A stretch of DNA of 64,000 nt from an uncultured Rhodothermales bacterium (GCA_965651265.1 CBFGRV010000003.1:30472-94471); one strand, 5' to 3'; positions 30,804 through 62,779 are shown, numbered from the stretch's first letter. Notes: a model not told the origin generated them from the letters alone. Numbers and translations are program-made.

Positions 30804-30953
30804 CGGTGGTTGCTGGATTCTGGTTGCTGGATGCTGATTTCCGAGCAAGACTACAAAGGCCAGACCCAATTCGTCCGCCAGAGGAGGCAGGCCTGCTCAC
30901 AACGATTTTTGCGAACTAACCTGCGACGCAAACGAAAAAATTTTCGGGAGTGA

Positions 30954-35380: not shown

Positions 35381-35555
35381 AACCAGGTGCCGGCTGGATG
35401 TTGCTAGGCGTGCCGCCAATCCGAGCGCAGGCGGATACGCGGCTTGATGTCCACTTCTCGAAACAAAGCTTGCCTAGCAAGCGGGACGACGCCTGCCGGC
35501 AATCTCGAGGATGAAGCGCATCGGCCAGGGGCACTGCTGCGCACCCTAAACGAGC

Positions 35556-37536: not shown

Positions 37537-37609
37537 GCCCGCGAGCGAGTCGGCATCTTCGCGTTTGGATGCTTATCATCGGCGGTCCCGATTTCTTTCG
37601 GGCATTTCG

Positions 37610-38974: not shown

Positions 38975-39056
38975 CGACGGCTCGAGCACATTGTATCCAT
39001 GATCTGCCTCTTGTATCATGGACGCTCATAGTTCTTCCACCAACCTTCACAATGTT

Positions 39057-40997: not shown

Positions 40998-41039
40998 TCG
41001 GGCGAACGCCGTCCAGGGCAAATTCTCCTTGAAATACCG

Positions 41040-41073
41040 GGGCCCCGTCTCCTCGCGAGTCGGGGCCCTTTTT
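41040..41073 (+). terminator. Rho-independent terminator
   Basis: GGGCCCCG/CGGGGCCC stem followed by TTTTT. Confidence 0.7.
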
Positions 41074-41216
41074 CTTGTAGCGCAAAGTGCCTTCTTGATG
41101 AGTGGCACTGCAAGATGCTAAGTCTTATACTTGCATCTCAGATTTACATCCCCATCTGACTATGTCGAAGTACATCCTGTGCTTCGAAGGGCATTCTTAA
41201 CCATCTAGTTGGCCTT

Positions 41217-43139: not shown

Positions 43140-43187
43140 ATCCGGTCACCTGGAGCGATCCAGGCTCGCGACAGACGAGAGAGACTT

Positions 43188-43223
43188 CAAGAGCCCGTCG
43201 CCCTCCGTGGCGGCGGGCTCTTG
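43188..43223 (+). terminator. Terminator-like hairpin
   Basis: CAAGAGCCCGTCGCC/GGCGGCGGGCTCTTG 15-bp stem with one G-U pair; weak U tail. Confidence 0.6.
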
Positions 43224-43344
43224 TCGTTGATGGCCTCTTGAGTTGCGCATTTGCGCATACGGGGGTTAGCCGCTTATTCTTGTAACCGGCGACAGAACGG
43301 CAGTGCACCATCGCTCCAGTCAAAGACCACAAACGGAGGCACCC

Positions 43345-45078: not shown

Positions 45079-45111
45079 AGGCCCGTCGCTTCCCCTGGCG
45101 GCGGGCCTTTT
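45079..45111 (+). terminator. Rho-independent terminator
   Basis: AGGCCCGTCGC/GCGGCGGGCCT stem followed by T run. Confidence 0.7.
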
Positions 45112-45284: not shown

Positions 45285-48188
45285 ATGCACGTAGCTACAC
45301 CAACTGCGAACAACGTCGCGATCTCACGCTTCTGGCTGCGGTCCTTTTTGTTGTTTGTCGCCCTGCTATCGTTACCCGCCGCCTCCTATGCCCAGGGGAA
45401 GATCGCCGGCAATGTAACCGATAGAAGCACCGGCGATCCGCTCATCGGCGTGAACGTCGTGATCCAGGGTACGACTCAGGGTACGACCACGGACATCGAC
45501 GGCAACTACATCATCCTCAATGTCCGCCCGGGCGCGCATACCCTCGTGTTCTCCTACATCGGATTCAGCACGCAGGTGGTGGAAGATGTGCGCGTGTCGA
45601 GCGATCACACTACGACGATCGATGTGGCGATGAGCGAGGAGGTCATCGAAGGGCAGGAAATCATTGTTCAGGCCGAGCGCCCCCTCATCCAGAAGGACCT
45701 CACCGCGTCGAAGAAGACCTTTGTCGCCGAAGAAATCGATCAGCTTCCCGTCGAGGGTTTCTTCGGCGTGCTGGCCACACAGGCGGGTGTCACGCAGGGA
45801 GCCGACGGTGCCTTCCACATCCGCGGAGGACGATCCAATGAGATCGGGTATCTGGTGGATGGGATGTCGGTGGGAAATCCGTTCAACACGAACACACTCG
45901 CCACCGAGGTAGCCGCGGATGCCATTCAGGAGATGACCGTCATCTCCGGCGCCTTCAACGCGGAGTACGGCAAGGCGATGTCGGGGATCGTGAACCTCAT
46001 TACGAAGGAAGGCGGCACGGAATACGCCGGCTCCATCTCCTTCGAAGCGGGCGACAACCTGGCCGGCGGTTCAGACATTTTCGGCGTCGGCGACTTCGAC
46101 TACATGAAGGACGTTTCGATGAACATGTACACGCTCGAGGGTACCCTCAGCGGTCCGCTGCTCACCGACAAACTTCGATTCTTCGTTTCCGGCCGTCGCG
46201 ATGTCGACGACGGCCACATTTACGGGATGCGGCGATTTCTCCCTTCCGACTCCGCCAACTTCAATGCAGACCTGGATCGGCTTGCCCTCATCCAACAACA
46301 CATCCCCGGTTTCGACGGCCCGAACTGGTATTACGAGATGCACGGCAAGCCGTGGTACGAGTACGTATCCGAGGGAATTGCTCCGCCCTCTGAGATCGTC
46401 TCGATGAATCCGCGCGAGAGCTTCAACATCATCGGGAAAATCACCTTCCGTCCCTGGGCGGGCGCAAAGATCGAGTACAGCCACTTGCAGGACGGATCGA
46501 AGCGGACGCCGTTCAGCTTCTCCTACCGGTTCAATCCTGACGGCGTGGCACCGGTACGGGACCGAAGTTACAACCACGGACTGCACTGGACACATACGCT
46601 GAACGACCGCTCTTTCTATACGGCGCGATTCTCCTATGCGGTCAGCAAGTTCAGACAGTACCTGTACGAGAATCCGCTGGACGAAAGGTACGTGGTCGAC
46701 AGAAGTACCACGGGCAACGGCAACGTTCTGGGGTTTCCCGGCAACAACTTTCTCTTCGCCGGCAACCAGAAGACGCACGTCTATGAGGACGCCTACTCCT
46801 TCCGTGGGAAGATCGATTTCACGCGCCAGATCGGGATGATCCACGAGGCGAAGGCGGGCATCGACCTCGAAATTCATGAGCTCGAGCGCGAAAACTTCGT
46901 GGTGCTCTACGACGGTAATCGGTACCGCCGGCCGACGGTCGAAAGCATCGACAACCCCTCTCGCGACAAATACGGTTGCACTCAGTTCATCGACGTACCG
47001 GGCGCCTATGACGGGTACACGTGCCGGGAGCAACGGGCCTACCATTTCGCCGCCTATGCACAGGATAAGCTGGAGTTCGAGGATTTCATCATCAATGCCG
47101 GCGTGCGCGTCGAGCATTTCGTCCCAAATGGGCGGTACATCCCCGACTTTTTGAACCCGCTGGATGAGACCCGCGAAAACGTCGTCACCGCGGAAGCGAG
47201 CCCGGAGACCATCGTGCTGCCGCGAATCGGCGTATCGTTCCCGATCACGGCACGAGGCATCATCCACTTCTCGTACGGGCACTTCGCTCAGATGCCGGAG
47301 CTCCGCACGATGTATCTCAATCCTGAGTTCGAGTACCCGGCAGATGTTGCGCCGACGTTCGGGAATGCCAACCTGAGGCCGGAGAAGACGATTTCGTACG
47401 AGATCGGCCTGCAGCAGCAGCTCACCGAGACGATCGCCTTCGACGTGACGGGATACTTCAAGGACATTCGCGACTATCTCACGCGACAGCAGGTCCAGTA
47501 CAGTACGATCCCTGGCCAGAACATTTTCAACATCTACGTCAACCGCAACTTCGTCCACGTGAAGGGCGTGACGTTTGCTCTGACGAAGCGGCGCTCTCGC
47601 GATGGGCTCGTGTCCGCCAATATCGACTACACGTACCAGATCGCCGAGGGAGAGAACGACGATCCCAGCGCGGCTTTCTTCAACTTCCTCTCCGGGCGTG
47701 AGAACGAGCTGGAGGTTATTCCTACGGACTTCGACCAGCGGCATGTCGTGTCCTCGGTCGTTACGGTATCGCGGCCGCAGGACTGGGGCATCTCGCTGAT
47801 CGGCAGATTCTCGACGGGCTATCCGTACTCCCCACTTCTGCTCGATCAGAACATCGACGACCTCCCTCGGAGCGGGCGCAAGCCGTCGCAAATCAAACTG
47901 GACGCGCATCTTTTCAAGACGATCGGGCTGGCCGGCGTGGACGCGCGACTCTTTGCGAAGGTCTACAACGTGCTGGACATCCGGAACGAGCTCTTCGTCT
48001 TTGACGAGACCGGCCGTGCGACCTACTCCCTCAGCCGGCGCCTGAACGCGCACGCGACCTGGGAACCCGCTTACGACGACATCGGAATCGTGCTGCCCGG
48101 CATTCCGACACTCGACGACTGGGACACCCGCCCCCACTACTTCTCCGCACCGAGAGAGGTGAAGGTGGGGATTATGTTGTCATTTTAG
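45285..48188 (+). CDS. TonB-dependent receptor (carboxypeptidase-regulatory-like N-domain + plug + barrel)
   Basis: GKIAGNVTD...GVNV, HIRGGRSNE...VDG, GAFNAEYG..MSGIVN..TKEG, HFSYGHF.Q and C-terminal PRxxxxGxxxxF. Confidence 0.92.
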   Translation: MHVATPTANNVAISRFWLRSFLLFVALLSLPAASYAQGKIAGNVTDRSTGDPLIGVNVVIQGTTQGTTTDIDGNYIILNVRPGAHTLVFSYIGFSTQVVEDVRVSSDHTTTIDVAMSEEVIEGQEIIVQAERPLIQKDLTASKKTFVAEEIDQLPVEGFFGVLATQAGVTQGADGAFHIRGGRSNEIGYLVDGMSVGNPFNTNTLATEVAADAIQEMTVISGAFNAEYGKAMSGIVNLITKEGGTEYAGSISFEAGDNLAGGSDIFGVGDFDYMKDVSMNMYTLEGTLSGPLLTDKLRFFVSGRRDVDDGHIYGMRRFLPSDSANFNADLDRLALIQQHIPGFDGPNWYYEMHGKPWYEYVSEGIAPPSEIVSMNPRESFNIIGKITFRPWAGAKIEYSHLQDGSKRTPFSFSYRFNPDGVAPVRDRSYNHGLHWTHTLNDRSFYTARFSYAVSKFRQYLYENPLDERYVVDRSTTGNGNVLGFPGNNFLFAGNQKTHVYEDAYSFRGKIDFTRQIGMIHEAKAGIDLEIHELERENFVVLYDGNRYRRPTVESIDNPSRDKYGCTQFIDVPGAYDGYTCREQRAYHFAAYAQDKLEFEDFIINAGVRVEHFVPNGRYIPDFLNPLDETRENVVTAEASPETIVLPRIGVSFPITARGIIHFSYGHFAQMPELRTMYLNPEFEYPADVAPTFGNANLRPEKTISYEIGLQQQLTETIAFDVTGYFKDIRDYLTRQQVQYSTIPGQNIFNIYVNRNFVHVKGVTFALTKRRSRDGLVSANIDYTYQIAEGENDDPSAAFFNFLSGRENELEVIPTDFDQRHVVSSVVTVSRPQDWGISLIGRFSTGYPYSPLLLDQNIDDLPRSGRKPSQIKLDAHLFKTIGLAGVDARLFAKVYNVLDIRNELFVFDETGRATYSLSRRLNAHATWEPAYDDIGIVLPGIPTLDDWDTRPHYFSAPREVKVGIMLSF

Positions 48189-48190
48189 AG

Positions 48191-48260
48191 AGAGGTCGGA
48201 GGTCAGAGGTCAGAGGTCGGACCTTGCTTTCAGACTTCTGACTTCCGACCTCTGAATTCT
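48191..48260. repeat. Intergenic heptamer (RGAGGTC) tandem repeats arranged as an inverted repeat
   Basis: AGAGGTC GGAGGTC AGAGGTC AGAGGTC (48191-48218) and GACTTCT GACTTCC GACCTCT GAATTCT (48233-48260). Confidence 0.85.
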
Positions 48261-48276
48261 GCCTGATACAGCTCTT

Positions 48277-51200
48277 ATGCATCTAATATCACCGATGGCT
48301 TTCAAGTCTCTTCCCTTCATCGCTTTCTCCCTCCTCCTCACCGTGGGGGCGTATGGCCAGACGCCGATCGACGTCCCTGAGCGAGGCTGGAGTGCCGAGC
48401 AGATGGGCGCCTGGCTGGATCGAATGGCCATGTCCGGCCAGCCTACCTACTATCAGGATTGCCCCGACTTCACGAACCGTCGCGACGCCATCCTGAACGG
48501 CAATAAGATCACGACGCAGATCACGAATTTTGGGTCGATTTCCGCTCCGGGCAACCGGATCACCGACATCGTCTGGAACGGCCTCGGGTACGGCTTCGAG
48601 TTCGGCCCCTTTGTCGCCGCCGAGGTGGTCGATGAAGGTCGTCGCGATCCGCAAAGCGTGCCGAAGCGCGACGCCAATGGAAACATCGTGACCGACGCCC
48701 AGGGAGACACGATCTATGTGATGCACATCGTGTCCGACGGGCTCGTCTCGGGTGGTGGCGAGGTCTCGCCGGACGGCTCCCAGCGGTGGGGATGGCAACC
48801 GATCCCGTGTGCACAGCCCGTGGGCAATTTCGCGGGCATACAGGTCGTAAATCCGAATTCGGATCGCATCCCGACGAGTGACGATCGCGACGCGGATCTC
48901 GACGGCAAGCCCGACCCGTGGCCTGAGGACTGGTACAACGAGAACCTCGGGGAGTACGTCTGGCCCGGCGCGCTGCAGCAGGGCGCGTCCAACGCCGACA
49001 AGGAGGCCCTCTACTTCATGAACGACTACCAGAACCGGGAATTTTACTACTTCCCCTTCCCGAGCGATTCGTCGAGGCGAGGCCTGGGCCTCGAAATGGA
49101 GGTGCGCCTCTACCAGTGGGCCAACCCGCTGGCCGAGGATGCCATATTCCTCATCTACAAAATCACGAACAAGAGCGAGAAGGACCTCGAACGCGTCCGC
49201 TTCGGGATGTGGGGCGACCCGCACGTTGGAGGTGCGAGCGACTACCACGACGACCTCGCCTTCTTCGATCGTAGCCTCAACATGGTATTTACGTGGGATG
49301 CCGACGGTCGATCCGATGTCGCCGGACGTGCCCCCGGGTACTTCGGCTACAAGTTCCTAGAGAGCCCCGGACTCGGTAATGAATGCATCGGGGGGCGCGG
49401 CGCGAACGTGGCGGAATGCGAGGCGTCGGGCGGGCGATTCATTCCCGGAGACGGCATCGACAACGACGGCGATGGAATGATCGATGAGTCGTGGACGGAC
49501 GGCATCGACAACGATGGCGACTGGAATCCCGAGACGGATGACGTCGGGATCGACGGCATTCCCGGCACAGGCGATTTCGGCGAGGGCGACGGCCTGCCGA
49601 CGGCCGGCGACCAATTCGACATCACGAAGCCGGGCGAACCCAACTTCGAGTTCACGGACATCGACGAGAGCGACATGATCGGCTTGACGTCCTTCGCCTC
49701 ACCACTTTACGGATCGGTGTGGAGTGACGAGGACTTCCGCGTCTGGAATCTCGTCGAGCCCGGAAACTTCGACGATATCCCGACGGAGCCGGCCGACTAC
49801 CTCTTCATTTACGGTGCGGGCGACTTCAAGCTGCATGCGGGCGAGACGAAGCGGTTCTCTATTGCGCTGCTCGTAGGCGAGAGCCTCGATGACCTCATGC
49901 TGAATGCCCAGACCGTGCAACAGATCTACGATGTGGGCTATCGGTTCGCGAAGCCGCCTGAGAAACCCACGGTGCAGGCCGTACCGGGCGACCGCAAGGT
50001 GACGCTCTACTGGGACGACGCGGCCGAGCGATCGCTCGATCCCCTGACGAACGAATTCGACTTCGAGGGCTATGTCATCTATCGGTCAACCGATCACGAG
50101 TTCAGTGATCAGCAGACCATCACGGACATCAACGGCACCCGTTTTCTGTTTCGCCCACTGACGGATGCGCGAGGCGTCGAAGCGAAGTTCGATCTCGAAA
50201 ATGGAATCACCGGGCCTGCACCGATCCCCTACCCCGGCCGGGGCGTCTCGTACGACCTGGGCGAGGATACGGGTCTGTTCCACACCTACGTGGACTCGAA
50301 CAATGTCCAGAACGGTCAGACCTACTATTACGCCGTCGTGGCCTACGACCGCGGTTTCGTCGGTGATGCCGGGGCGGGCTTCGAGGGGGGCATCGCGCCG
50401 AGCGAGACGGCAAAGACCATCACTTTCGACCCGACGACGGATACCCACATCTTCGACGTCAATACGGTGGCCGTGACGCCCGGCCCGCGTGTGGCGGGAT
50501 ACGTCGAGCCATCACTCGAGATCAGTCACGCGGCAGGCAATGGAACGGGTAGCGTCGACGTTCGGATCGTGGATGAGCTCGCCGTTCCCCCGGACAATAC
50601 CTTCCGGGTGGATTTCGACGAGGTCGACGGCCAAATCGTCTACACGATCACGGATCAAAAGCCGACCTCGATCGAAATCACCGCGCGCCCCGGTCAGTTC
50701 TCCGGGCTGGGCCACGCTCACATCATCCCGTCGTCCTTCTCCCTCACAACGCTCGACGGCGGCGCGCTCCAGGCCGGCACCGACTTCGAGCTGAATGCGG
50801 ATGCCGGAACGGTTCATATTCTCGAGGGCGGTAGCGTGCAGCCGTTCCAGCAACTGGTCGCCACCTTCCGATACTCGCCGATCTACCGAAGCAACCTTCT
50901 GAGTGGCGAGGAGGCCAATTTGGTCTTCAGCGGGCTGCATGTGTTCGTGGAGGATGAGGAACTCGCCATCAACACGGACTTGACAGGATGGGCCGCGGGG
51001 GATGTATCGATTCCGGGCGACGTTCGAGTCGCTACGGCGGGCCCCGGGCGGCGGCCGCAGCCGTCCGACTACGAGGTTCGGTTCGCGGATTCGAACATCG
51101 GGACATCCTTCAACAACAACGTCCCTGTTCCCTTCGAGGTGGTCAACCTGACGCGTGCCAATGAGACGATCTCGGTCTTCACGCCCGATGGTAATCGCAA

Positions 51201-51735
51201 TGGGGTCTGGGATCTGAACGAGCCCATCATCTTCCTCGAAGATGTCGATGGGCAGATGATCGCGACGTGGGAGGTTCGGCTGAATCCGGGTCCGGATGCG
51301 CCGATGCCGGGCAACGGAGACGTCTTCCTCGTGGTTACGCACAAGCCCTTCACCGACGCGGACGTCTTCACCTTCACGACCCGGAGTGCGGCTGTGGACG
51401 AGCAGCTTGCATCCCAACAGCTGCAGAATATCTACGTGGTCCCGAACCCGTACGTCGCCACCAGCGAGATCGAGCCGCTGAACCCGATCGCCAATACCGA
51501 ACGCGGCGATCGGAGGCTCTACTTCGCGAATCTTCCCCAGGAAGCCACTATCCGCATTTACTCGCTCGCCGGTGAGCTCATCGACACGATCGAGCACCGG
51601 AGCACGATGGACGACGGCAAGGCGTTCTGGGATCTGCGGACGAAGGAGAATATGAATATCTCCTACGGCCTCTACATCTACCACGTCGATTCGCCGCACG
51701 GTTCGTTCGTCGGCAAATTTGCGGTGATAAAATGA
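48277..51735 (+). CDS. Large secreted hypothetical protein with DGIDND repeats, Fn3-like domain and atypical 'VVPNPY' CTD
   Basis: Signal peptide; DGIDNDGD x2; PGDRKVTLYW...FEGY.IYRS...YYYAV; C-terminal VVPNPY...GKFAVIK. Confidence 0.8.
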   Translation: MHLISPMAFKSLPFIAFSLLLTVGAYGQTPIDVPERGWSAEQMGAWLDRMAMSGQPTYYQDCPDFTNRRDAILNGNKITTQITNFGSISAPGNRITDIVWNGLGYGFEFGPFVAAEVVDEGRRDPQSVPKRDANGNIVTDAQGDTIYVMHIVSDGLVSGGGEVSPDGSQRWGWQPIPCAQPVGNFAGIQVVNPNSDRIPTSDDRDADLDGKPDPWPEDWYNENLGEYVWPGALQQGASNADKEALYFMNDYQNREFYYFPFPSDSSRRGLGLEMEVRLYQWANPLAEDAIFLIYKITNKSEKDLERVRFGMWGDPHVGGASDYHDDLAFFDRSLNMVFTWDADGRSDVAGRAPGYFGYKFLESPGLGNECIGGRGANVAECEASGGRFIPGDGIDNDGDGMIDESWTDGIDNDGDWNPETDDVGIDGIPGTGDFGEGDGLPTAGDQFDITKPGEPNFEFTDIDESDMIGLTSFASPLYGSVWSDEDFRVWNLVEPGNFDDIPTEPADYLFIYGAGDFKLHAGETKRFSIALLVGESLDDLMLNAQTVQQIYDVGYRFAKPPEKPTVQAVPGDRKVTLYWDDAAERSLDPLTNEFDFEGYVIYRSTDHEFSDQQTITDINGTRFLFRPLTDARGVEAKFDLENGITGPAPIPYPGRGVSYDLGEDTGLFHTYVDSNNVQNGQTYYYAVVAYDRGFVGDAGAGFEGGIAPSETAKTITFDPTTDTHIFDVNTVAVTPGPRVAGYVEPSLEISHAAGNGTGSVDVRIVDELAVPPDNTFRVDFDEVDGQIVYTITDQKPTSIEITARPGQFSGLGHAHIIPSSFSLTTLDGGALQAGTDFELNADAGTVHILEGGSVQPFQQLVATFRYSPIYRSNLLSGEEANLVFSGLHVFVEDEELAINTDLTGWAAGDVSIPGDVRVATAGPGRRPQPSDYEVRFADSNIGTSFNNNVPVPFEVVNLTRANETISVFTPDGNRNGVWDLNEPIIFLEDVDGQMIATWEVRLNPGPDAPMPGNGDVFLVVTHKPFTDADVFTFTTRSAAVDEQLASQQLQNIYVVPNPYVATSEIEPLNPIANTERGDRRLYFANLPQEATIRIYSLAGELIDTIEHRSTMDDGKAFWDLRTKENMNISYGLYIYHVDSPHGSFVGKFAVIK

Positions 51736-51788
51736 GGGTTGCTGATTGACGCCGGCAGAACCTCGGCGAAAGATGGGTACTTAGAGAT

Positions 51789-52856
51789 ATGACACGACGC
51801 ATGAAGCGATACACGACACTCCTGGCTGCTCTCCTCTTGATTCCTTCCGTGGCCCTTGCACAGGAGCAGGCGCCGTCCGAGGATGGCGCACCCGGCGGCA
51901 AAACGGTCACCAAGTCAGGGACGACGGCCGCGCAGTTCCTGAAGCTCGGCGTCGGCGCCCGGCCCATCGCGATGGGCGGCGCCTTCGTTGCGGAGGCAAG
52001 CGATCTATCCGCGCTCTACTGGAATCCCGCGGGACTCGCGAGTCTCCGCGGAGCAAGCGTTTCGCTCGCGCACACGGAGTACCTGGCCGACGTGAACTAC
52101 AGCTTCGCCGCCTTCGGCACGTCTCTCGGAAACTGGGGAACGTTGGCTGCGGCCATCCTCTACCTCGACTCGGGCGACATGACCGTCCGCACGATCGAGC
52201 AGCCTGAGGGGACCGGTGAGCAATTCAAGGTTCAAAATTTTGCCATCCAGCTCTCCTATGCCCGCGCGCTGACGGATCGATTCTCGCTCGGGGTCAACAC
52301 AAAGTACGTCCAGGAGCGCATCTGGCACAGCTCGGCGTCGACCCTGGCACTGGACATCGGCACGCTCTTCACGACGCCTTATGAGCGGCTGCGACTCGGA
52401 GCGAGCTTCTCGAATTTCGGCCCTAAAATGCAGATGAGTGGGCGCGACATCGTATTTAGCTACGATCCCGTTCCCGGGCAGGCCGGAAACGTCGAGATCG
52501 TCAACGCCGAGTATCTGATGGAGGAGCATCCACTTCCCCTCCTCTTCAGAATCGGTCTCTCGTGGGATGCTGTTCACACCGCCGACCACCGCATCGTGCT
52601 CTCGACCGATGCCGCTCACCCGAACGACAACTACGAGTACGTCAACTTCGGGGCCGAGTACGACTTTCGTGGGCTGATCGCGCTGCGTGGTGGGTACCGC
52701 AACCTATTCGAGCAGGATGGCGAGCAGGGCTGGACGTTCGGCGGCGGATTGAACCTGCGCATGGACAGCGGGCTGCGAGCCGGATTCGACTACGCCTACG
52801 CCGATTTCGGGCGCCTCGACGCTACCCATTGGTTTACGGTGAACCTGGGATTCTAG
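51789..52856 (+). CDS. PorV/PorQ family outer membrane beta-barrel
   Basis: AQFLKLGVGARPIAMGGA, ALYWNPAGLA, LRGGY and DYAY; C-terminal Phe. Confidence 0.88.
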   Translation: MTRRMKRYTTLLAALLLIPSVALAQEQAPSEDGAPGGKTVTKSGTTAAQFLKLGVGARPIAMGGAFVAEASDLSALYWNPAGLASLRGASVSLAHTEYLADVNYSFAAFGTSLGNWGTLAAAILYLDSGDMTVRTIEQPEGTGEQFKVQNFAIQLSYARALTDRFSLGVNTKYVQERIWHSSASTLALDIGTLFTTPYERLRLGASFSNFGPKMQMSGRDIVFSYDPVPGQAGNVEIVNAEYLMEEHPLPLLFRIGLSWDAVHTADHRIVLSTDAAHPNDNYEYVNFGAEYDFRGLIALRGGYRNLFEQDGEQGWTFGGGLNLRMDSGLRAGFDYAYADFGRLDATHWFTVNLGF

Positions 52857-52893
52857 CCGCAGCGTGCGGAGCGCGCGACGGCGCCGGCAGCGG

Positions 52894-54810: not shown

Positions 54811-55973
54811 TAGGGACCGTCACGCTGCGTGTAGATGCTCAGAATCCTGCCCGGATTCTCCGGCAGGTCCGTGCGGGATAGATAGAGGGTTGCACCCTCC
54901 CCCCATGCAAGGGAAAACGCTGGGGGCGCGATCAGGCCCGGGTAGAAAATCTCGTAGGAGCCATCGGGCTCCACGATAAAGAGCGGATCATCCGCCGATG
55001 AGCCCACAAATAGCGCCCCGTCCGCCGTGGCGGCAAGAGACATGCCGACAGCACTACCCTGAGAGGCTTCGGTCAAATTGAAAAACAGCTCACCGTCGCT
55101 CAAAGCACCATTATTGATTGGGTAGCGCATAATGATATACTCGCCATCCAGAAGGAGCATCACATACAGGACGCCCCCGTGAGCCTCCAGGGCTCTAATG
55201 GTGCCTCCGACCTCGTACCCGGTAAGCTCGCCGGCTAGGTTTGCGGCGAACACTACACCGCCGCGGCCGCCGGCCCATACGGTCCCTGCCGCATCGATGG
55301 ATAGTGCCGTGAAGCGTATGGAGCGATCGGACGTAGAAGTCCAATTCTCCGGCTCGCCACCATCAGGTGGGAAGCGGAAGATGATGCCGGAGTTGCGGAC
55401 GCCGTAGAGGTGGCCGCCTGGACCGAACTCGATCGCATCCCATCTGAAAGCTGCCGAACTGAAGACTTCTCGCGTTCCATCTTCAAAGATACGCACGATG
55501 CCCTGCGGGACGTCGTTCGCGGCAATCGAAGCATAGAGGTTGTATTCGTCGTCGGTCGCGATCGCGAAGGTCTCTTCGAAATCCCCGATGCCGCCAAACT
55601 CTCTGATCGCGGGCTGCAACGTATAGGACATCGAGTTGCTCAGTTTTTCGGCCCCGACGACGGCAACCCGCACATTGATGCCTGATTTGGCGAGGTTCGG
55701 GCTCGCCACGACCAGCTGCGTAGACGTTGCCGAAATGACCTGCGCCCGCTGCGCATCGAAGTAGACGATATTCTCGGCGGGAGTATCGGAGAAGTTTTCG
55801 CCCATGATCGTCACGGTACCGATCCCCGCCAACCACTCACCTTCCGGCTGGATGCTCGTGATGGTCGGGTCCGGCATGAAGGCGCGACTCTCGTCGTACA
55901 GGGAAGGGCCGGGCGTCGTGTCGCACCCCATTGCCAGCAACAGTAAAAGCGAAACCACCGCAGGATACTTCAT
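54810..55973 (-). CDS. IPT/TIG-domain beta-propeller lipoprotein
   Basis: Lipobox AMG-C; PTITSIQP...TIMGENF...N.VYF IPT motif, then propeller-like repeats. Confidence 0.8.
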   Translation of the reverse strand: MKYPAVVSLLLLLAMGCDTTPGPSLYDESRAFMPDPTITSIQPEGEWLAGIGTVTIMGENFSDTPAENIVYFDAQRAQVISATSTQLVVASPNLAKSGINVRVAVVGAEKLSNSMSYTLQPAIREFGGIGDFEETFAIATDDEYNLYASIAANDVPQGIVRIFEDGTREVFSSAAFRWDAIEFGPGGHLYGVRNSGIIFRFPPDGGEPENWTSTSDRSIRFTALSIDAAGTVWAGGRGGVVFAANLAGELTGYEVGGTIRALEAHGGVLYVMLLLDGEYIIMRYPINNGALSDGELFFNLTEASQGSAVGMSLAATADGALFVGSSADDPLFIVEPDGSYEIFYPGLIAPPAFSLAWGEGATLYLSRTDLPENPGRILSIYTQRDGP

Positions 55974-56078
55974 AAGTCCCTGATCACGACGGTATCGTCC
56001 GCCTGGTCGAATATGGCCTGGAATCATCATCCTTGAATTAGTCCTGGTACGCCGGAAGTCTGCTCATAGGGATGCCTG

Positions 56079-57098
56079 TCAGAAGGATAGCTGCAGGCCG
56101 ATGCGATGAATGCCGCTGAAGACGCCGTAGTCCGAGTAGGCGTAATCGCCGCCCAGCGTGATCCCGCCCACGGTCCGGTGGATCCCGACCCCGGCGTGAA
56201 TCCCCTGAACGTCGGTCGGGAAAATGTATCCGGCTCGCAGGGAAATCGTATTCAAGAAGGTGTATTCACCACCGATCTTGATCTGTTCGTCGAAATCACG
56301 CGGACTCTCCGTATCGATGGCCACGACGAAGGAGTGGTTCTCGCTCCCGGGTGACATGAGATCCAGGACATTCATCGCGACGCCGATCTTGAGGAGCAGG
56401 GGAAGCTCGAAGCTTTCCTCGGCATATTCGATGTCACGCGCGAAATTCCGCGCGGCAACGGCAAACGTGAGGCTCCGGAATCCCGTGTCGTACATCATCC
56501 CGAAATCGAATGCGATGGCGCTCTCGTCATTGGCGGCGCGTTCGTACCCGTCTTCCACCACGGACATCACGGAATTGCCGAGATCCTGACCCACGTATTT
56601 CACGTGCCCCCCGATCGAGAATCGATCGCTGAGTGCGCGGGCGTATCCGAATCCGAAACTCATGGCCGATGGAGAAAACGTGCCGAGGTCGAGAAAGCCC
56701 TGCTCGTTGTCCGCTCTAATCGTTTCCTCGATCTCGCCGTAGTCGGCATGGACGAAGGAAAACGCGAAGACACCGAGACGACCTCCCATGGGTCGGAGGG
56801 AAAGACTCGCGAAGTTGTAGGCCACATCAACAAACCAGTCGGTCTGGGCCACGGCGGCGTGTAGGAAATCTTCCTGATAGGCCATACCGGCCGGGTTATA
56901 GAAGATCGACGTCGATCCACCGCGCATAGCGGTCACCGCGTCGCCCAGCGCGGCCGCCCTGGGATCCGCCGATATGTTGAGGAACTTCATCGTCGTTCGG
57001 GCAAGCTTCTGCCGATTGGCATCCTCCTGAGCGTGCGAGCGCGGAGCGATAGCCGCCACCACCATGAGAAGAGAGAGGATCGAAGTTATATACTTCAT
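56079..57098 (-). CDS. PorV/PorQ family outer membrane beta-barrel
   Basis: MKFLNISADPRAAALGDA, IFYNPAGMA, LRAGY and DYAY; C-terminal Phe. Confidence 0.88.
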   Translation of the reverse strand: MKYITSILSLLMVVAAIAPRSHAQEDANRQKLARTTMKFLNISADPRAAALGDAVTAMRGGSTSIFYNPAGMAYQEDFLHAAVAQTDWFVDVAYNFASLSLRPMGGRLGVFAFSFVHADYGEIEETIRADNEQGFLDLGTFSPSAMSFGFGYARALSDRFSIGGHVKYVGQDLGNSVMSVVEDGYERAANDESAIAFDFGMMYDTGFRSLTFAVAARNFARDIEYAEESFELPLLLKIGVAMNVLDLMSPGSENHSFVVAIDTESPRDFDEQIKIGGEYTFLNTISLRAGYIFPTDVQGIHAGVGIHRTVGGITLGGDYAYSDYGVFSGIHRIGLQLSF

Positions 57099-57163
57099 TG
57101 GAGCATGCATTCGGTTTGCTCGGTCGGCCGCAACCATCGGCGCGCGATTTCGAACTCAGTGAA

Positions 57164-59281
57164 TCAGCGAATGATGACGAACTTCTTGATGATGCGTTGG
57201 CCGGTCTCCGTATCCGTGATGACGGCAAAGTAGATCCCGCTGGCCACCACCTGTCTCGAGGCCGTCGTATGGTTCCAGAAGGCGTCTCCGCTGCCGTCCG
57301 TATGCACGATCTCATCCACGAGCTCGCCGAGCTCCGTATAGATCTCGATTTTCGCCTGACCCGGGATGTTGAGAAAGCCCAGCTTGTCCGTTTGATCGGG
57401 CCACCGTACCGAAGGCGACGAGCCGAGGTTGAACGGATTGGGCACGATGCGTACATCCGAGAGCGCCTCGCCCGGCGGACGCTTCAGGTTGGCCGGGACA
57501 TAGGTTTGCGTGGCGTAGCGACTGCTGCGGAGCGGCACGCCTGTTGGCGTCCCACCCGTCGCGTCCGTGTTGTTATTCCGGACGGCCACGAGATAGTAGT
57601 AGTAATCGATACCGCGAATCGGCGTCGTGTCGTCGTATTCACGGGCTTCCGGTCCAAGCTCCGCGATCAGCGTGTAGGTGCTGTCGTAGGCATTCTGCGT
57701 CCTGTAGATCTCAAACCCATCAGGTGACCCTTCGGCAGGATACTCCCACGTAAGTTGGATCCGGTCTCCGCCCGAATTCACCTCAAAGATCGACGGCGGT
57801 GGCGGTGCCGAAGGAATGGAAAAGCCCGATTCGAAGTTCGCGATGGCACGGAGGAAGGTCTGATAGAGGGAGTCTCGGCCGGAGAGCGCCCACTCATTCT
57901 TGGTCATCGCGACCACCTGACCGCCCACTTCGTATTCGAGCAGAGCCGTTTCGCTGGCGCCCGAGGCTTTGTACTGGCGCCCGATGGCGTGAGAGGCTTC
58001 ACGGCTGAGGCCGCTCATAGCCTCCGCCATGACTATCCGCACGCTCTCGCCGGGACCCAGCGTGTACGGCCCGTATCCCACCGCGGCCGAAAATCCACCG
58101 GGCGTCCCCAGAGCGGGATCGCCAGATGGATTCACCCACCCATCGAGACCATCTGCCTCCACGACATAGGCATGCGAAGGAAGCTTTCGACCGGACGTCA
58201 TGATGGAGTACTCATTCAGCATCTGCGGCGGATTGAAGGCATCGTTGTTTGACTCGAAGGTTGCATCGGATTCGATCCACGTCGTCGTCGACGGCTGATT
58301 GGGATCGTCGGAATCGTCCGACGCCGAGAGATCCGCATGCAGTGTTACGGCGCCAACCATCTGATAGCCGGCGAGCCGGCCCGTCGTGTCCGTCGACGAG
58401 ATGTACAGGGGTACGGGGAGTGCCGACGGCAGAACGGGGCCGCCGAGGTTGTTGTAGGCGAGGCGAGACTGCGGATAGAAGCCGTGCCAGGCGTACTGTG
58501 CCCTCACGGGCTCACCCGGCTCAGGGAAGTTCTCCTGGTCTCCATCTCCCCAGGTGTCGATCATCGTATTGATGCCCCATCCCGATGCATTCCCCACGAG
58601 GTACCGCGATTCGCGAACCGGTGCCCACCGCCATTGCTTGAAAATCTGGACCCCCTCCAGCGTTTGATCGGGCAATTCGACATCTGCGTCTGCATCGACA
58701 TTCCCGGTGTTCGTGAAGACGTACTCGATGACGTGATAATTGTCGTGGTAGGGCTGCGTGAAGGCATAGACCGTCCGCTCCATGGTGAGGCCAAGCAGGG
58801 TATTGACCCGGTTCACGAGCATGTAGTCCGAGGGGATCGACGGATCGACGCGATCCACGGCCATAGGGGCAAGGCTCTCTGAAAGAAAGCCATCGACGAA
58901 CACGTCGGTCGGCGCCCGCTTCGCGACCAGCTCAAACTCGACAGGGAAGAATTCGCCCGCCCCGGACACGCGAGGTCCGGCGTGAACGACGCGGACATCG
59001 TAGTGGTCGCCGTTGGCATCCGTCACGTTCGTCGCTCCGATCCACAGGCCTTTCCATGCCTGGGCATCCGTGTACTGATAGATGCCGGGCCAGCGCATGC
59101 CGTCCTGCTGGTTGCCGACAAATCCGGAGGACTCGACCTCGGTACCTTGCTCCGAATACCAATTATGAAGCGAACCCCCGGAAATCCACTTCCGGGCAAA
59201 CTGTGCCTCCGCCGTGCCGGCAAGCCCGACGGCCGACGTCAAAAGCACGAATGCAAATGCAAGTAGTCTGGTGCGGTGCAT
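57164..59281 (-). CDS. Secreted hypothetical protein with Fn3-like domain and atypical 'IVPNPF' CTD
   Basis: Signal peptide; GPYTLGPGES; PPPPS...GDRIQLTW...GFEIYR...YYYYLVA; C-terminal IVPNPF...KKFVIIR. Confidence 0.8.
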   Translation of the reverse strand: MHRTRLLAFAFVLLTSAVGLAGTAEAQFARKWISGGSLHNWYSEQGTEVESSGFVGNQQDGMRWPGIYQYTDAQAWKGLWIGATNVTDANGDHYDVRVVHAGPRVSGAGEFFPVEFELVAKRAPTDVFVDGFLSESLAPMAVDRVDPSIPSDYMLVNRVNTLLGLTMERTVYAFTQPYHDNYHVIEYVFTNTGNVDADADVELPDQTLEGVQIFKQWRWAPVRESRYLVGNASGWGINTMIDTWGDGDQENFPEPGEPVRAQYAWHGFYPQSRLAYNNLGGPVLPSALPVPLYISSTDTTGRLAGYQMVGAVTLHADLSASDDSDDPNQPSTTTWIESDATFESNNDAFNPPQMLNEYSIMTSGRKLPSHAYVVEADGLDGWVNPSGDPALGTPGGFSAAVGYGPYTLGPGESVRIVMAEAMSGLSREASHAIGRQYKASGASETALLEYEVGGQVVAMTKNEWALSGRDSLYQTFLRAIANFESGFSIPSAPPPPSIFEVNSGGDRIQLTWEYPAEGSPDGFEIYRTQNAYDSTYTLIAELGPEAREYDDTTPIRGIDYYYYLVAVRNNNTDATGGTPTGVPLRSSRYATQTYVPANLKRPPGEALSDVRIVPNPFNLGSSPSVRWPDQTDKLGFLNIPGQAKIEIYTELGELVDEIVHTDGSGDAFWNHTTASRQVVASGIYFAVITDTETGQRIIKKFVIIR

Positions 59282-59288
59282 GCTCGAT

Positions 59289-62200
59289 CTAGAAGGTGAG
59301 GCGAATGCCGAAATACACGTCGCGCGGATCGAGAAACGTCAGGAATCGCTGGTTGGGCATGTCGATGTACGCCTTCTTGTCGAGGACCTCCTCGACGACA
59401 TTCGGATCGGCGCCCTGCCAGGCCCCCTCTCGATAGACGATGTACTGCTGCGTATCCCGTTCGTAGTAGATAATCTCTTCGCTCGGCGATACCTCCCCGG
59501 CTTCGAACTGGCTGCGCGACACGATGCTCTGCATAGGCTGGAATTCGACGTCGTAATCGCGGTACGCGCCGATCTTGTCCTTGCCCGGGATGTTGTCGTA
59601 GTACTCGGACTCCGGAAGATGGAGCGAGCGCAAATAGGCCGTCTGGTCGTTGGCGTCGACGAAGCCGGCGAACGAAAGGCGCTTGGCGTTGAGGGCATTG
59701 AAGACGTCCACGAAGAACTGTGCGTCGCGGCCGGCGACCGTGAAGTTCTTCGCGAAGCGCAGGTTCAAATTCCAGAAGTCGACGAACTCAACGTTGTTAC
59801 GCACGCCCGGAATACTGCCACCTCCCGTCCACGTGAACTTGGAACCCTGGCGCCACGTCCCGAGAATGCTGAGTCGCCAGTCGCCGAGTGGCTGGAAGTC
59901 GCCCAAGGACGGTCCGAAATCAACAGGCGTCAACAGGTCCAGGTTGAGCCGTGCATACGGGCGAGCGACTGGCTGGGTCAGCGCGGCGCGGCGCGTGGCA
60001 TCGTTGTTGATGAACTGGCGCTGCTGGGTTGGATTCTCGTAATTCTGGCTAAACCCGAAATAGCCGAACGAATCCTGCATATACGTGAAGTTGATGAAGC
60101 CGCGCACCCAGCTTCCCCGATTCCGACTAAACGTGATCTCAAACCCTCGCACGTCCTGGAAACCGTTCGGCTCGTAGGTGCTGTACTCCACCTGGCCGTC
60201 TCTACTCGTGAAGGTCACGAGTCGCGGCTCGTTCGATACGTCCTTGTAGTAACCCGCCACGCGAACGAGGAACTGATCCAGCAGGGAATGCTCGTAGCCC
60301 AACTCGTAGGCGCGGGTTTTTGGCAGCGGATTGTTCGGATCGGCGACTTGCGCCACCTGGCCCGTTGCCGTCCACGTTCGGAACAGGAATAGCGAGTTCG
60401 GATCGGGGATGGATCGGAAATGCCCGTAGTTGAAATACAGCTTCGAGAACGAGGTCACGGGGAACGACACCCCGAGCCTCGGGCTGAGCGTGAACAGATG
60501 CTCGGTTGCTCGCTGTTCGAGGAGCGAATCTCGGAGTGCAGCATTCGCTGCGGCGAAGGCCTCGCTGAAGGGATCGTACTGATACCAGTCCCCTCCGGCG
60601 TTGAAGTAGTCGAGCCGAAGACCCAGATTCGCGATCATCCCCTTGAACTCCAGCTTGCCCTGTCCATAGACGGCCCCGCGAGCGGGCAGCCGATCCCACT
60701 GAGAGACCTGGTTGCTCGTAGGCAGGAAGGCATCGAAGGAGCCGTAGTTGATGCGGCTGTCCGTGAGGTTGATCTCGATGCCGGTCTTCGTCTGGAGGAA
60801 CCGATTTACCTGGCTCGTCAGGTCGCCCTTCAGGTTGTAGACGACCACGCGGCTCGTATCGCGCGCGTTGCTCATGCCCACCCCCATGCGCATGCCGGCC
60901 ACGCCGAACGTCGGCTCGGGGGAGAAGCCGAAGGGCGCCTCGTCGAATCCGACGCTGCCGATCACGACGACCGTCGTCGTATCCCGAAGGGGATTCGGAT
61001 TCGTATCGTAGGCGGAGGCGAATCGCGTGAAGCGCAGCTCGTAGAAGGAGCGATCATTCACAGTGTGGGTGAATTTCGCCCCCAGCATCGACCGGCGGAC
61101 CTCCGTAGGCGCCCAGTAATCTTCGGCGAAGATGCGCGTATCGATGAAGCTAACCTGGGTCATTTCGCCCGCAATGCTCGACGGTGACCGGAAAATCCCC
61201 GGCTGACCTGCGCGGCTCGATGCCGTGCCCGTCTCCCGAGCGATCAACCCCTCTATGCTGAGCTTCATCCCCGGCGCGAGGTCCGACGTGATCTTCAGGT
61301 GGCCGGATCGCTCCTTGTAGCGATCGCGCGAGAGGGGGATGAGGTACATGTCCTGATCCTCCCGGTAGGAGGCGTAGAACCGTGCATTCCCGAGTGGTCT
61401 GCTGAAAAGCGGTAGCGGTCCGCCCAGCCCGACATCCACCGAATAATCCGGATCGACGATCTCAAGCTGCTTCCTGTGTTGCCAGAGGAAGGCCTGTTGG
61501 AGAGCGGCCGGCGTCATGTCGTTCGTTGGATCGTCGTCGCGAAGGCGCTCCTCGGCCAGAGCGATCCATCCTGGAAACTCCGGATACTGCGCGCGCAGCG
61601 CATCCGACCATGGCCCGTTCGCCGTCCCGACGAAGGCTACGTCGGGGTCGACGAAGGGACGGATCCAGTACGAATTCGGGTCGCTGGCCGTCGGGCCGAA
61701 ATGCTTCTGTGCGGGCGGGCTATAGCGGAGGATGACGTCGGCACCGTATCGATCACTCCATCCTTCCTTCGTGACCACGTTTACGATGCCTGAGCGTACG
61801 TTCCCGTACTCGGCATTGAAGCCGCCCGTCTGCACCTGGATCTCGTCGACCGCCGTGATGCTCAGGCCCGTGAACGGCGAGTTGTTTCGCTCATCCCGAA
61901 AGGACAGGCCGTTCACCATGAAGCTGAGCTCATCGGCGCCGCCCCCACGCACCTCCAATCCGAGGATGCCCGCCTGCAGACCTACGGCACCCGAAACACT
62001 CGAGACGGGCAGCCGCTCGATCTCCTCACTGGTTATGTTGGCCAGGCTAGCGGAGACATCCGGCTGAACCACGGGGCGCTCTGCAACAACGACAACTTCC
62101 TCTCCCTCGAGCACCTCTTCCCTCATGGCGATGTCGATGGTTGTCGTCTGATCGATGTTGACGACGACATTCTCGATCACCTGCGTGGCGTATCCGATAT

Positions 62201-62435
62201 ACGAGGCCCGAACGGTATGCGTCCCGGGGGATACGTTGAGAATGACGTAGTAGCCATCCACATCGGTAACGGACCCCTGGGTGGTTCCCTCGATGAGGAC
62301 GTTCACACCGACCAGGGTTTCGCCGCTTTCCGCGTCTGTGATGGTCCCAGCAATCTTTCCCGTTTGGGCAAACGCCACAGGCCCCAAGAGGAGCGAAAGC
62401 CCGAAGATGCAGATCGATTTCTGGTAGAATCTCAT
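59289..62435 (-). CDS. TonB-dependent receptor
   Basis: GKIAGTITD...GVNV, VRGG, GGFNAEYGNVRSGIVNVVTKEG, YFNYGHF and C-terminal PRDVYFGIRLTF. Confidence 0.92.
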   Translation of the reverse strand: MRFYQKSICIFGLSLLLGPVAFAQTGKIAGTITDAESGETLVGVNVLIEGTTQGSVTDVDGYYVILNVSPGTHTVRASYIGYATQVIENVVVNIDQTTTIDIAMREEVLEGEEVVVVAERPVVQPDVSASLANITSEEIERLPVSSVSGAVGLQAGILGLEVRGGGADELSFMVNGLSFRDERNNSPFTGLSITAVDEIQVQTGGFNAEYGNVRSGIVNVVTKEGWSDRYGADVILRYSPPAQKHFGPTASDPNSYWIRPFVDPDVAFVGTANGPWSDALRAQYPEFPGWIALAEERLRDDDPTNDMTPAALQQAFLWQHRKQLEIVDPDYSVDVGLGGPLPLFSRPLGNARFYASYREDQDMYLIPLSRDRYKERSGHLKITSDLAPGMKLSIEGLIARETGTASSRAGQPGIFRSPSSIAGEMTQVSFIDTRIFAEDYWAPTEVRRSMLGAKFTHTVNDRSFYELRFTRFASAYDTNPNPLRDTTTVVVIGSVGFDEAPFGFSPEPTFGVAGMRMGVGMSNARDTSRVVVYNLKGDLTSQVNRFLQTKTGIEINLTDSRINYGSFDAFLPTSNQVSQWDRLPARGAVYGQGKLEFKGMIANLGLRLDYFNAGGDWYQYDPFSEAFAAANAALRDSLLEQRATEHLFTLSPRLGVSFPVTSFSKLYFNYGHFRSIPDPNSLFLFRTWTATGQVAQVADPNNPLPKTRAYELGYEHSLLDQFLVRVAGYYKDVSNEPRLVTFTSRDGQVEYSTYEPNGFQDVRGFEITFSRNRGSWVRGFINFTYMQDSFGYFGFSQNYENPTQQRQFINNDATRRAALTQPVARPYARLNLDLLTPVDFGPSLGDFQPLGDWRLSILGTWRQGSKFTWTGGGSIPGVRNNVEFVDFWNLNLRFAKNFTVAGRDAQFFVDVFNALNAKRLSFAGFVDANDQTAYLRSLHLPESEYYDNIPGKDKIGAYRDYDVEFQPMQSIVSRSQFEAGEVSPSEEIIYYERDTQQYIVYREGAWQGADPNVVEEVLDKKAYIDMPNQRFLTFLDPRDVYFGIRLTF

Positions 62436-62779
62436 GATCGAGGTCGAAACTGGATGACGCCCTCGCCGGGACCTGCCTGGATAGTCGTGCGGGCTCGCAG
62501 CCGACGCCGTCGTGCACTGCATCGAGCGCATCGATGGAAGAGTGCCAGGCTTATGTCAACCGATCAAGGGGAGTCTGGAGGATCGTTCGTACTTACTGGA
62601 GGTTGGAGTTCGCACTGTCGCGCAACGAATAGAAGGGATTCTAAGTAAAGGTCCATCCCGCCGATGCGCAAGGCCATTACGCAGCCTATTGGGTGTATCC
62701 ACATCCGCATTCCTGGTACCGCCGGGGAAACCCCTTTGCGCAAGGCACGTCAGCATCTTTTCTAACGACAAACACCTTC

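Follow-up and report, generated by a model that had tools for sequence, protein, structure and literature searches.

TonB-dependent transporters with surface partners underlie the success of Bacteroidota at polymer degradation, and SusC/SusD (RagA/RagB) is the textbook model. A three-gene system that couples such a transporter to a surface partner of another kind is described here. It lies in a stretch of 64,000 nucleotides (nt) from an uncultured Rhodothermales bacterium (GCA_965651265.1, CBFGRV010000003.1:30472-94471; hereafter the window) and recurs in the metagenome-assembled genome (MAG) that was analysed (3.8 Mb, 172 contigs, 97% complete). The window carries two paralogous cassettes, A at 45285-52856 (+) and B at 62435-56079 (-); each is a triad of a TonB-dependent receptor (TBDR), a large secreted protein (cargo) and a barrel of the PorV/PorQ family. 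With somewhat better than even confidence, each cassette is read as an outer-membrane nutrient-capture and import unit that is built by a type IX secretion system (T9SS), is free of lipid and keeps the tail of its cargo on a private barrel.

The triad resembles SusC/SusD in several respects: a transporter with a CarboxypepD_reg-like domain stands directly ahead of its surface partner, the loci contain glycan enzymes and regulators, and there are many diverged copies. Unlike SusD, the triad partner is all-beta (supersandwich, FN3 and tail) and has no lipid anchor; in addition, a third, PorV-like gene is obligatory, and the triad receptor fails the SusC/RagA model.

In the PorZ-PorQ and PorU-PorV pairs of Porphyromonas gingivalis, a T9SS-exported protein likewise retains its tail on a PorV-family barrel. 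The available text of PMC10202324 reports that the tails of PorZ and PorU are not removed and remain bound to PorQ and PorV, and suggests that cognate PorV-like barrels may shield tails from cleavage; retention in the triad is proposed by analogy. In contrast to these pairs, the triad stands outside the secretion machine, has a binding-type cargo head and is always coupled to a TBDR. The type B C-terminal domain (CTD) systems with PorP/SprF-like barrels (SprB/SprF, Flavobacterium) also have a dedicated PorV-like barrel beside its own T9SS cargo, as the same portion of that source describes (PMC10202324). In the triad, however, the tail is divergent type-A/PorZ-like, the barrel is of the PorV/PorQ family and a receptor is included.

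BtuB-BtuG and other non-SusD lids of Bacteroides provide a further parallel, in that accessory surface proteins of several unrelated folds stand beside the transporter (available text of bioRxiv 10.1101/2023.03.17.533168 and PMC10404256). Unlike the triad cargo, these lids are all lipoproteins, and the available text of bioRxiv 10.1101/2023.03.17.533168 mentions the T9SS or PorV zero times. BamG is a FadL/PorV-like 14-strand barrel of the Bacteroidota beta-barrel assembly machinery; it sits side by side with BamA, and its loops hold the surface protein BamH (PMC12578637, in the part available). This is the geometry that the triad model requires. BamG nevertheless belongs to a different subfamily (PorV-A, the barrel of cassette A, scores 16.4 bits on the BamG model, cut-off 250), BamH is a lipoprotein, and the function is protein assembly. 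The cellulose locus chu_1276-chu_1280 of Cytophaga hutchinsonii also lacks SusD; according to the accessible portion of PMC12016534, a receptor-like barrel and beta-sandwich binding proteins of this locus are needed for polymer use. Compared by description, its proteins are smaller than those of the triad, and that portion of the source describes no PorV-like barrel or tail anchoring (PMC12016534).

In the mechanism that we infer for the triad, the steps are T9SS export, tail retention, barrel-receptor proximity, and substrate binding with hand-over. The receptor would be a TonB-energised importer. The cargo would be exported by Sec and then by the T9SS; its tail, of the PorZ/PorU kind, would stay uncleaved and dock on the extracellular face of the co-encoded barrel, and this docking would tether the cargo at the cell surface without a lipid anchor. 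The supersandwich head on its FN3 stalk would bind a polymer, mostly glycan as the flanks suggest, and pass it to the neighbouring receptor. The cargo would fill the role that in Bacteroides falls to SusD and other surface glycan-binding lipoproteins. A further proposal is put forward tentatively, as possible rather than probable: the private barrel may form a stable side-by-side complex with the TonB-dependent transporter and hold a T9SS-delivered, lipid-free lid or capture subunit by its uncleaved tail, and the triad may be widespread in the Fibrobacterota-Chlorobiota-Bacteroidota (FCB) group and possibly older than SusD.

If true, the triad is a second, structurally unrelated solution to that of SusC/SusD. 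The role of the PorV family would widen from secretion shuttle to permanent anchor, and importers would, many times per genome, have taken on parts of type IX secretion as permanent structural subunits. The triad would also serve as a rule for locating substrate-uptake loci in phyla where SusD searches yield little. Its carriers (Rhodothermales, Marinimicrobia (SAR406), Ignavibacteriota, Calditrichota, KSB1 and relatives) are abundant degraders in soil, compost and ocean, and the middle proteins are annotated only as hypothetical. The triad consists of known parts in an undescribed combination; no published description was found in the full-text literature, a coverage that leaves out subscription journals and supplements. 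New here are the 13-copy count, the coexistence with SusC/SusD, the shared head fold, the kinship of the tails to those of PorZ and PorU, the controlled docking and the 63/65 neighbour count.

Gene order, copies and conservation

The initial annotation had listed six genes in two cassettes, each in the order TBDR, large secreted protein, PorV/PorQ barrel. All six are found at the coordinates that it gave, and domain matches confirm that this order is present twice. The genes and their parts are as follows (aa, amino acids; ORF, open reading frame).

45285-48188 (+): TBDR-A, 967 aa; signal peptide, CarbopepD_reg-like N-terminal domain, plug and barrel
45651-45683 (+): TonB-box-like stretch GQEIIVQAERP of TBDR-A, between N-terminal domain and plug; read from the TBDR alignment
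48277-51735 (+): cargo-A, 1152 aa; secreted non-lipoprotein; database gene calls begin at Met7
48463-49956 (+): cargo-A head, residues ~63-560; galactose-mutarotase-like beta-supersandwich by structure superposition
49444-49686 (+): acidic DxDxDG-rich insert within the cargo-A head, residues ~390-470; low-confidence model
49969-51396 (+): cargo-A FN3-like domain (~565-700) and extra beta domains (~715-1040), from secondary structure; predicted local distance difference test (pLDDT) 80-95
51415-51732 (+): cargo-A CTD, residues 1047-1152; divergent T9SS tail
51789-52856 (+): PorV-A, 355 aa; PorV/PorQ family (NF033709)
56079-57137 (-): PorV-B, 352 aa; PorV/PorQ family (NF033709)
57164-59281 (-): cargo-B, 705 aa; Sec signal peptide at residues 1-26
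59203-57812 (-): cargo-B head, residues 27-490; beta-supersandwich (residues 25-490 in the structure comparison)
57799-57572 (-): cargo-B FN3 domain after the head, residues 495-570
57469-57167 (-): cargo-B tail, residues 605-705; PorZ-like C-terminal domain
59289-62435 (-; ORF to 62531): TBDR-B, ~1048 aa from Met33; CarbopepD_reg_2 and Plug

The TBDR-B start at 62435 is Met33, which aligns with the TBDR-A start; the full ORF extends to 62531. The cassettes had also been described as lying head to head at their 3' ends. They are convergent but do not abut, because an IPT/TIG gene and a GHL10 gene, both on the minus strand, sit between them, tight behind cassette B. Together with the two triads, these two genes make up a region of eight tightly packed genes.

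The genome contains 18 PorV-family genes, 13 of which end a triad. The order receptor-cargo-barrel is kept in 12 of the 13 copies, with gaps of -112 to +125 nt. The 13 triad receptors are exactly those that reach 241 bits or more against TBDR-A or TBDR-B; none of the other 24 receptor-like ORFs exceeds 90 bits. On these scores, the triad receptors appear to form one clade. Cassettes A and B themselves are, as judged from sequence, old paralogs. Chance adjacency was considered and rejected: for at least 13 of the 18 PorV-family genes to be found no more than 4.5 kb downstream of a same-strand receptor, a binomial estimate puts the probability at ~2e-18.

A co-phylogeny of the three genes had been suggested as a check on the cassettes. 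Across the 13 paralogous triads the parts have co-diverged; Mantel rho between the distance matrices for receptor, cargo body, tail and barrel is 0.53-0.76, and every p equals 0.0005, the permutation minimum. The correlation points to duplication and retention as a block and is by itself no proof of physical co-evolution.

The triad was also surveyed across phyla with one genome per species and an alignment of four long-class cargos; the survey covers the long class of cargo and the best 80 of at least 596 loci. Long-cargo relatives were confirmed in 596 of 597 pattern matches (among the matches listed). The best 80 loci come from Rhodothermales, Marinimicrobia/Neomarinimicrobiota, Ignavibacteriota including Melioribacteraceae, Kryptoniota, Calditrichota, KSB1 and unclassified FCB bins. 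Some carry odd taxon labels (Victivallales, Paceibacterota, Acidobacteriota) and are short contigs or bins; the oddly labelled bins are probably mis-assigned. Among the 68 loci testable for a receptor, 66 have one of the triad clade that ends no more than 600 nt upstream on the same strand, and the other two have one at 610-720 nt. All 74 loci testable for the barrel have a PorV-family gene that begins immediately downstream, and of the 65 testable for both neighbours, 63 have both. The expected conservation of the triad order is borne out, both in this genome and across several phyla.

Closer relatives are found in Rhodothermales MAGs and isolates, and the source names of these orthologs assign the genome to Rhodothermales. 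Both cargos have orthologs in Roseithermus sacchariphilus strain RA ('Rhodothermaceae bacterium RA') and Rubrivirga marina, and relatives of the long class occur in MAGs of Melioribacter and Ignavibacterium. Orthologs of cargo-A share 62-77% identity and those of cargo-B 56-75% (120 matches listed for each), and all are named 'hypothetical protein'. In a protein atlas, the relatives form unnamed 'hypothetical protein' clusters only, from Ignavibacteriota, Fidelibacterota and Bacteroidota. One cargo-A ortholog, P0156, bears the precomputed Pfam accession PF27730.1; a recently created family may cover part of the protein.

Receptors and cargo proteins

TBDR-A matches the Pfam models CarbopepD_reg_2 (77.5 bits), Plug (43.1 bits, cut-off 23.9) and TonB_dep_Rec_b-barrel (92.5 bits, cut-off 27). 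TBDR-B matches CarbopepD_reg_2 (71.4 bits) and Plug (26.1 bits); its barrel is without a Pfam match yet is homologous to that of TBDR-A. Identity between the two receptors amounts to 47% for the N-terminal 240 aa and falls to 25% in the barrel (E 8e-30). With a plug and a 22-strand barrel as the definition, both are classed as TonB-dependent receptors, the barrel of TBDR-B by homology to TBDR-A. The TonB-box-like stretch of TBDR-A has the counterpart GEEVVVVAERP in TBDR-B; we take both stretches to be like SusC-type TonB boxes.

The likeness to SusC is confined to one end of the receptors. On the SusC/RagA model TIGR04056 (cut-off 368), TBDR-A scores 107.2 bits and TBDR-B 78.5 bits, over the N-terminal 120-220 residues only; in TBDR-A the match is restricted to residues 39-254. 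The PDB sequence matches of TBDR-A, SusC homolog 8aa4 and RagA 6sli, also cover the N-terminal part only. On these matches, the triad receptors have a SusC-like N-terminal domain and plug, with a barrel in a separate clade.

As the initial annotation had noted, no SusD-like lipoprotein stands behind either receptor; there is no SusD Pfam match and no lipobox cysteine in the cargos. The strict definition of a polysaccharide utilization locus (an adjacent susC/susD pair) does not apply, as neither cassette has a susD gene. The description 'SusD-less' suits both cassettes and not the organism: the genome has four SusD genes, each adjoining a non-triad receptor (1026-1254 aa) in a true SusC/SusD pair. 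Triads outnumber these pairs by 13 to 4, and both coexist in the genome.

Both cargos have a Sec signal peptide and no lipobox cysteine, are not SusD-like and have an all-beta predicted fold. In this genome they fall into two size classes: long (1112-1287 aa; five triads, including A) and short (617-820 aa; eight triads, including B). Pfam gives no match for cargo-A. By BLAST, cargo-A and cargo-B share only the C-terminal 105 residues (31% identity, E 5e-10); an FN3 motif is also common to the two.

AlphaFold2 models were obtained for both cargos. The cargo-B model has a pLDDT of 85.9 and a predicted template modelling (TM) score of 0.85; the cargo-A model has values of 77.1 and 0.73, with low pLDDT over residues 395-468. 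In Foldseek searches against the PDB, FN3 tandems crowded out other matches, and TM scores for the head were low; a full VIA-align search was therefore needed, and structures were compared exhaustively by this method. The top matches of the cargo-B head have Z scores of 18.4 to 17.6 over 236-272 aligned residues. They include dextran dextrinase 9ju0 (Z 18.4), the bacterial glucoamylase 1lf6 (Z 18.3, root-mean-square deviation (rmsd) 3.0, 236 residues aligned) and GH94 phosphorylases (Z 17.6-18.1); GH116 and GH65 enzymes are also matched, and galactose mutarotases follow at Z ~13. For the cargo-A head, the top matches range from Z 19.3 to 17.1, with 9ju0 first (Z 19.3, rmsd 3.2, 258 residues aligned) and 1lf6 at Z 18.4; the N-domains of GH94, GH65 and GH116 are matched at Z 16-18. 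Both heads thus match the supersandwich N-domains of GH15, GH94, GH65 and GH116 together with galactose mutarotases (Z 13-19), and both are, in these models, galactose-mutarotase-like beta-supersandwiches.

Since the heads give the same match list, the long and short cargos can be regarded as one family. Compared with the short class, the long class adds the acidic DxDxDG-rich insert and ~330 residues of beta domains ahead of the tail. In the cargo-B model no catalytic (alpha/alpha)6 domain is present behind the supersandwich; this position is taken by FN3 (from Foldseek matches), a linker and the tail. A non-catalytic copy of a mostly sugar-handling fold, carried on a stalk, would be compatible with a binding protein.

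Tails, private barrels and flanking genes

The tails of T9SS cargos are recognised as type A when TIGR04183 or PF18962 scores over 23 or 27 bits at the extreme C-terminus. The cargo CTDs had been called atypical, and rightly so: TIGR04183 (cut-off 23) gives nothing for cargo-A and a borderline score for cargo-B (20.1 bits when proteins were scanned, 23.9 when the genome was). The type-A tail model has 86 matches in the genome, and only 2 of the 13 triad cargos are among them. The type B model CHU_C scores 16.5 bits on the triad tail, below its cut-off of 27.

PorZ and PorU provide the better matches. The NCBIfam PorZ model matches cargo-B in the tail only, and the PorU model weakly matches the cargo-A tail. 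The cargo-B tail superposes on the PorZ tail (5m11 residues 687-776) with Z 11.8 and rmsd 2.3 Å over 88 residues at 22% identity. A profile built from the 13 triad tails, which score 103-135 bits by construction, was searched over the genome; the best scores outside the triads belong to PorZ (37.8 bits), an ordinary cargo protein (32.9 bits) and PorU (32.7 bits). Profile and superposition suggest that, among the non-triad proteins of the genome, the tails of PorZ and PorU are nearest to those of the triads.

The third gene had been proposed to encode a PorV/PorQ-family barrel, which agrees with NF033709 scores of 234.4 bits for PorV-A and 193.4 bits for PorV-B (cut-off 90). Neither reaches the canonical PorV model NF033710 (89.4 and 90.7 bits, cut-off 250) or the canonical PorQ model NF033711 (105 and 85.6 bits, cut-off 220); by these scores, both are paralogs in the PorV/PorQ family and equivalogs of neither. 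PorV-A and PorV-B share 28% identity (E 1e-35), and PorV-A matches Flavobacterium johnsoniae PorV in the PDB (6h3i_F, E 1e-11). PorV is itself a FadL homologue, as stated in the available part of PMC12578637, and Pfam adds weak matches to TraF_2 and, at 22.8 bits against a cut-off of 29.7, to Toluene_X/FadL. On these grounds the small barrel could itself work as a channel of the FadL type, conducting some hydrophobic or small product that is released at the surface, with an incidental tie to the cargo tail. This is very improbable in view of the NF033709 scores (234 and 193 bits vs 90), the predicted docking of the tail and the constant position of the barrel behind a tail-bearing protein.

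Docking was predicted for PorV-A (residues 25-355) and the cargo-A tail (residues 1040-1152), with a separate alignment for each. Three runs gave scores of 0.91, 0.91 and 0.90, while the best of three controls gave 0.01; contact overlap between the runs is at least 91%, and partner pLDDT is at least 76. The mark is reached by 58 of 80 solved complexes and by 2 of 110 mismatched pairs, counts that are only rough here because own alignments were used. Binding of the cargo-A tail to PorV-A is supported, not demonstrated, by this docking. The tail contact residues are family-wide motifs (VVPNP, GEL, G-Y and the last eight residues); the predicted docking mode is therefore generic to the family, and cognate specificity is possible. 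Of the 47 barrel contact columns, 21 are variable. Of the docking proposed between tail and PorV, the contact itself is predicted with clean controls for cassette A; the pairing of each tail with its own barrel is not supported, as the contacts are family-wide motifs.

The same contacts bear on the main rival explanation. According to this, the genes of the triad share regulation but their products form no stable complex; the barrel is a shuttle and nothing more, the tail is cleaved, and the cargo is released or attached to lipopolysaccharide as ordinary T9SS substrates are. The cargo would then work as a binding protein, free or on the cell, that is physically separate from the receptor. PorV is described as a cargo shuttle in the available portions of PMC12578637 and PMC10202324, docking through family-wide tail motifs is what a generic shuttle contact would show, and many ordinary type-A tail proteins are found in the same loci. 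However, a canonical PorV beside PorU already exists, yet a private paralog is kept in 13 triads here and in 74 of 74 testable loci elsewhere. In addition, the type-A model detects only 2 of 13 triad tails, and the nearest tail relatives in the genome are PorZ and PorU. A mere shuttle is consequently judged unlikely, though it retains more weight than any other rival.

Barrel and cargo also occur together outside the triads. On contig C8:6684-10347 of genome G000 (locus L030), two PorV/PorQ-family genes stand in tandem behind a gene whose 535-aa product combines a BNR/F510_1955-like body with a PorZ-like tail. There is no TonB receptor in this unit; since cargo and barrel are here found without an importer, private PorV-like anchors seem to be used beyond triads.

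Export of the cargo would require a T9SS in the carriers. The genome matches SprA (1998 bits), PorU (962 bits), PorQ (259.8 bits) and PorZ (372.8 bits), which by these scores is a complete set of T9SS outer parts; PorU adjoins a canonical PorV (295 bits), away from the triads. Of 48 triad carriers from outside Rhodothermales, 46 have SprA, and the two without it are oddly labelled bins. This co-occurrence is compatible with export of the cargo by the T9SS.

Forty flanking proteins of the other eleven triads were scanned. A type-A tail (Por_Secre_tail, E <= 1e-5) is present on 14 of the 40. The set includes one GH9 cellulase with CelD_N, three CBM9 proteins, one GHL10 protein, one NAGPA phosphodiester glycosidase and one Laminin_G_3 protein. 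Two LacI regulators stand directly ahead of two long-class triads. Triad T07, a paralog near to cassette B, likewise has a GHL10-CTD gene behind it. Glycans appear to be the commonest theme of the flanks and not the sole one.

The flanks, together with the receptors, are relevant to another explanation, in which the triad serves display or export: the large protein itself does the work (e.g. as an adhesin or surface-layer component), and the receptor-like barrel aids its export or assembly instead of importing nutrients. Oar-type receptors carry a CarboxypepD_reg domain, which counts for this explanation. So does the requirement of Oar, a TonB-dependent transporter, for PopC secretion in Myxococcus (PMC6434023, as far as its available text goes). 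The cargo has a T9SS-type tail, however, and SprA is present in 46 of the 48 carriers examined; the best matches of the receptor N-terminal domain and plug are SusC and RagA; and the LacI regulators and glycan-active enzymes beside the triads are in keeping with uptake. Display or export is hence improbable.

The initial annotation had inferred an alternative uptake architecture, with the exported protein held at the surface by its own PorV paralog as lid or substrate-capture subunit of the receptor; this is supported in part. Capture and import by a tail-anchored cargo is favoured by the conservation of the triad, the barrel family, the PorZ/PorU-like tail, the predicted docking, the carbohydrate-type head fold and the glycan and LacI flanks; the cargo may cap the receptor, and cognate specificity is possible.

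A number of observations weigh against capture and import. The supersandwich fold is no proof of sugar binding, because the periplasmic domain of YidC shares it (Z 13 to the head). The docking score may mirror known PorV complexes and not the binding of this copy, because solved PorV structures exist; these presumably include PorV-substrate complexes. Close cousins of a true partner tend to pass docking too. Among the 13 paralogs, the tail contact columns have a mean pairwise identity of 0.43 vs 0.25 elsewhere (p 1e-4), whereas in the barrel the contact columns show no higher conservation than the others (0.26 vs 0.27). Block duplication alone would yield the same co-divergence of the parts. 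The co-occurrence of SprA discriminates little, because SprA and the T9SS are common throughout these phyla. In triad T09 (contig C57), two extra genes stand between cargo and receptor. Some flanks have no link to glycans: an S9 peptidase, a phytase-like protein and phosphatase-family genes occur, and triad T12 (contig C8:60465-72839, L028) is followed by two MtrC/MtrF-like multihaem cytochromes c (CXXCH) of 740-760 aa with TPR.

Transcription and neighbouring genes

Two hairpins and the two genes between the cassettes complete the region:

45079-45108 (+): terminator-like hairpin of 12 pairs, 9 of them G-C, with a T-run; behind the preceding CTD gene
48186-48262 (+): RNA hairpin in the 88-nt TBDR-A/cargo-A spacer; strong fold, without a T-run
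52894-54810 (-): GHL10 glycosyl-hydrolase-like protein with a type-A T9SS tail; GHL10 267 bits, TIGR04183 27.4 bits (cut-off 23); last gene of the cassette-B strand run
54810-56030 (-): IPT/TIG and propeller-like protein with lipoprotein signal LAMGC; TIG 52.4 bits; likely start Met20, at 55973

The IPT/TIG gene begins 48 nt behind PorV-B, and the GHL10 gene then overlaps it by 1 nt. The IPT/TIG lipoprotein may be an extra surface binding protein.

Upstream of cassette A, four consecutive genes at 37460-45045 (+) encode proteins with T9SS tails (a BNR/Sortilin-like protein, two FG-GAP proteins and an FlgD_ig-rich protein). This run ends at the hairpin 45079-45108, which is likely to be the 5' boundary of the cassette A transcription unit. 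Promoter-like sites number 2 in the scan vs 4.9 expected, and terminator-like sites 8 vs 11.5 expected; only the hairpin at 45079 stands out.

The spacer hairpin at 48186-48262 has a predicted folding energy of -43.7 kcal/mol (z -5.4), and 0 of 200 shuffles are as good. It is imperfect and consists of GAGGTC-type repeats; it might act in processing, as a stabiliser or as a partial stop. A contig from one compost run has 32 extra letters of the GAGGTC-type repeat at 48191-48221, so the TBDR-A/cargo-A spacer varies between strains.

Public reads give a weak hint that cassette A is expressed. In metatranscriptome X19, three small contigs lie on TBDR-A and cargo-A with short fragments elsewhere, and 24 of 30 bins are without cover. 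Three compost runs labelled 'transcriptomic' have flat, DNA-like cover.

A gene at 62693-64000 (+) is divergent from TBDR-B and leaves the window; its full ORF has 689 aa with a weak AAA_16 match, and it might be a regulator of cassette B. Three other minus-strand genes of the window lie further upstream of cassette A. The first, at 32678-35419, encodes a protein of 913 aa in which a Ser/Thr protein kinase is joined to a WD40 propeller of seven blades. The second, at 30954-32588, encodes a sigma-54 activator whose N-terminal part is weakly RtcR/CARF-like (E ~1e-3). The third, at 28845-30869, encodes a 674-aa lytic transglycosylase (SLT) with three LysM domains.

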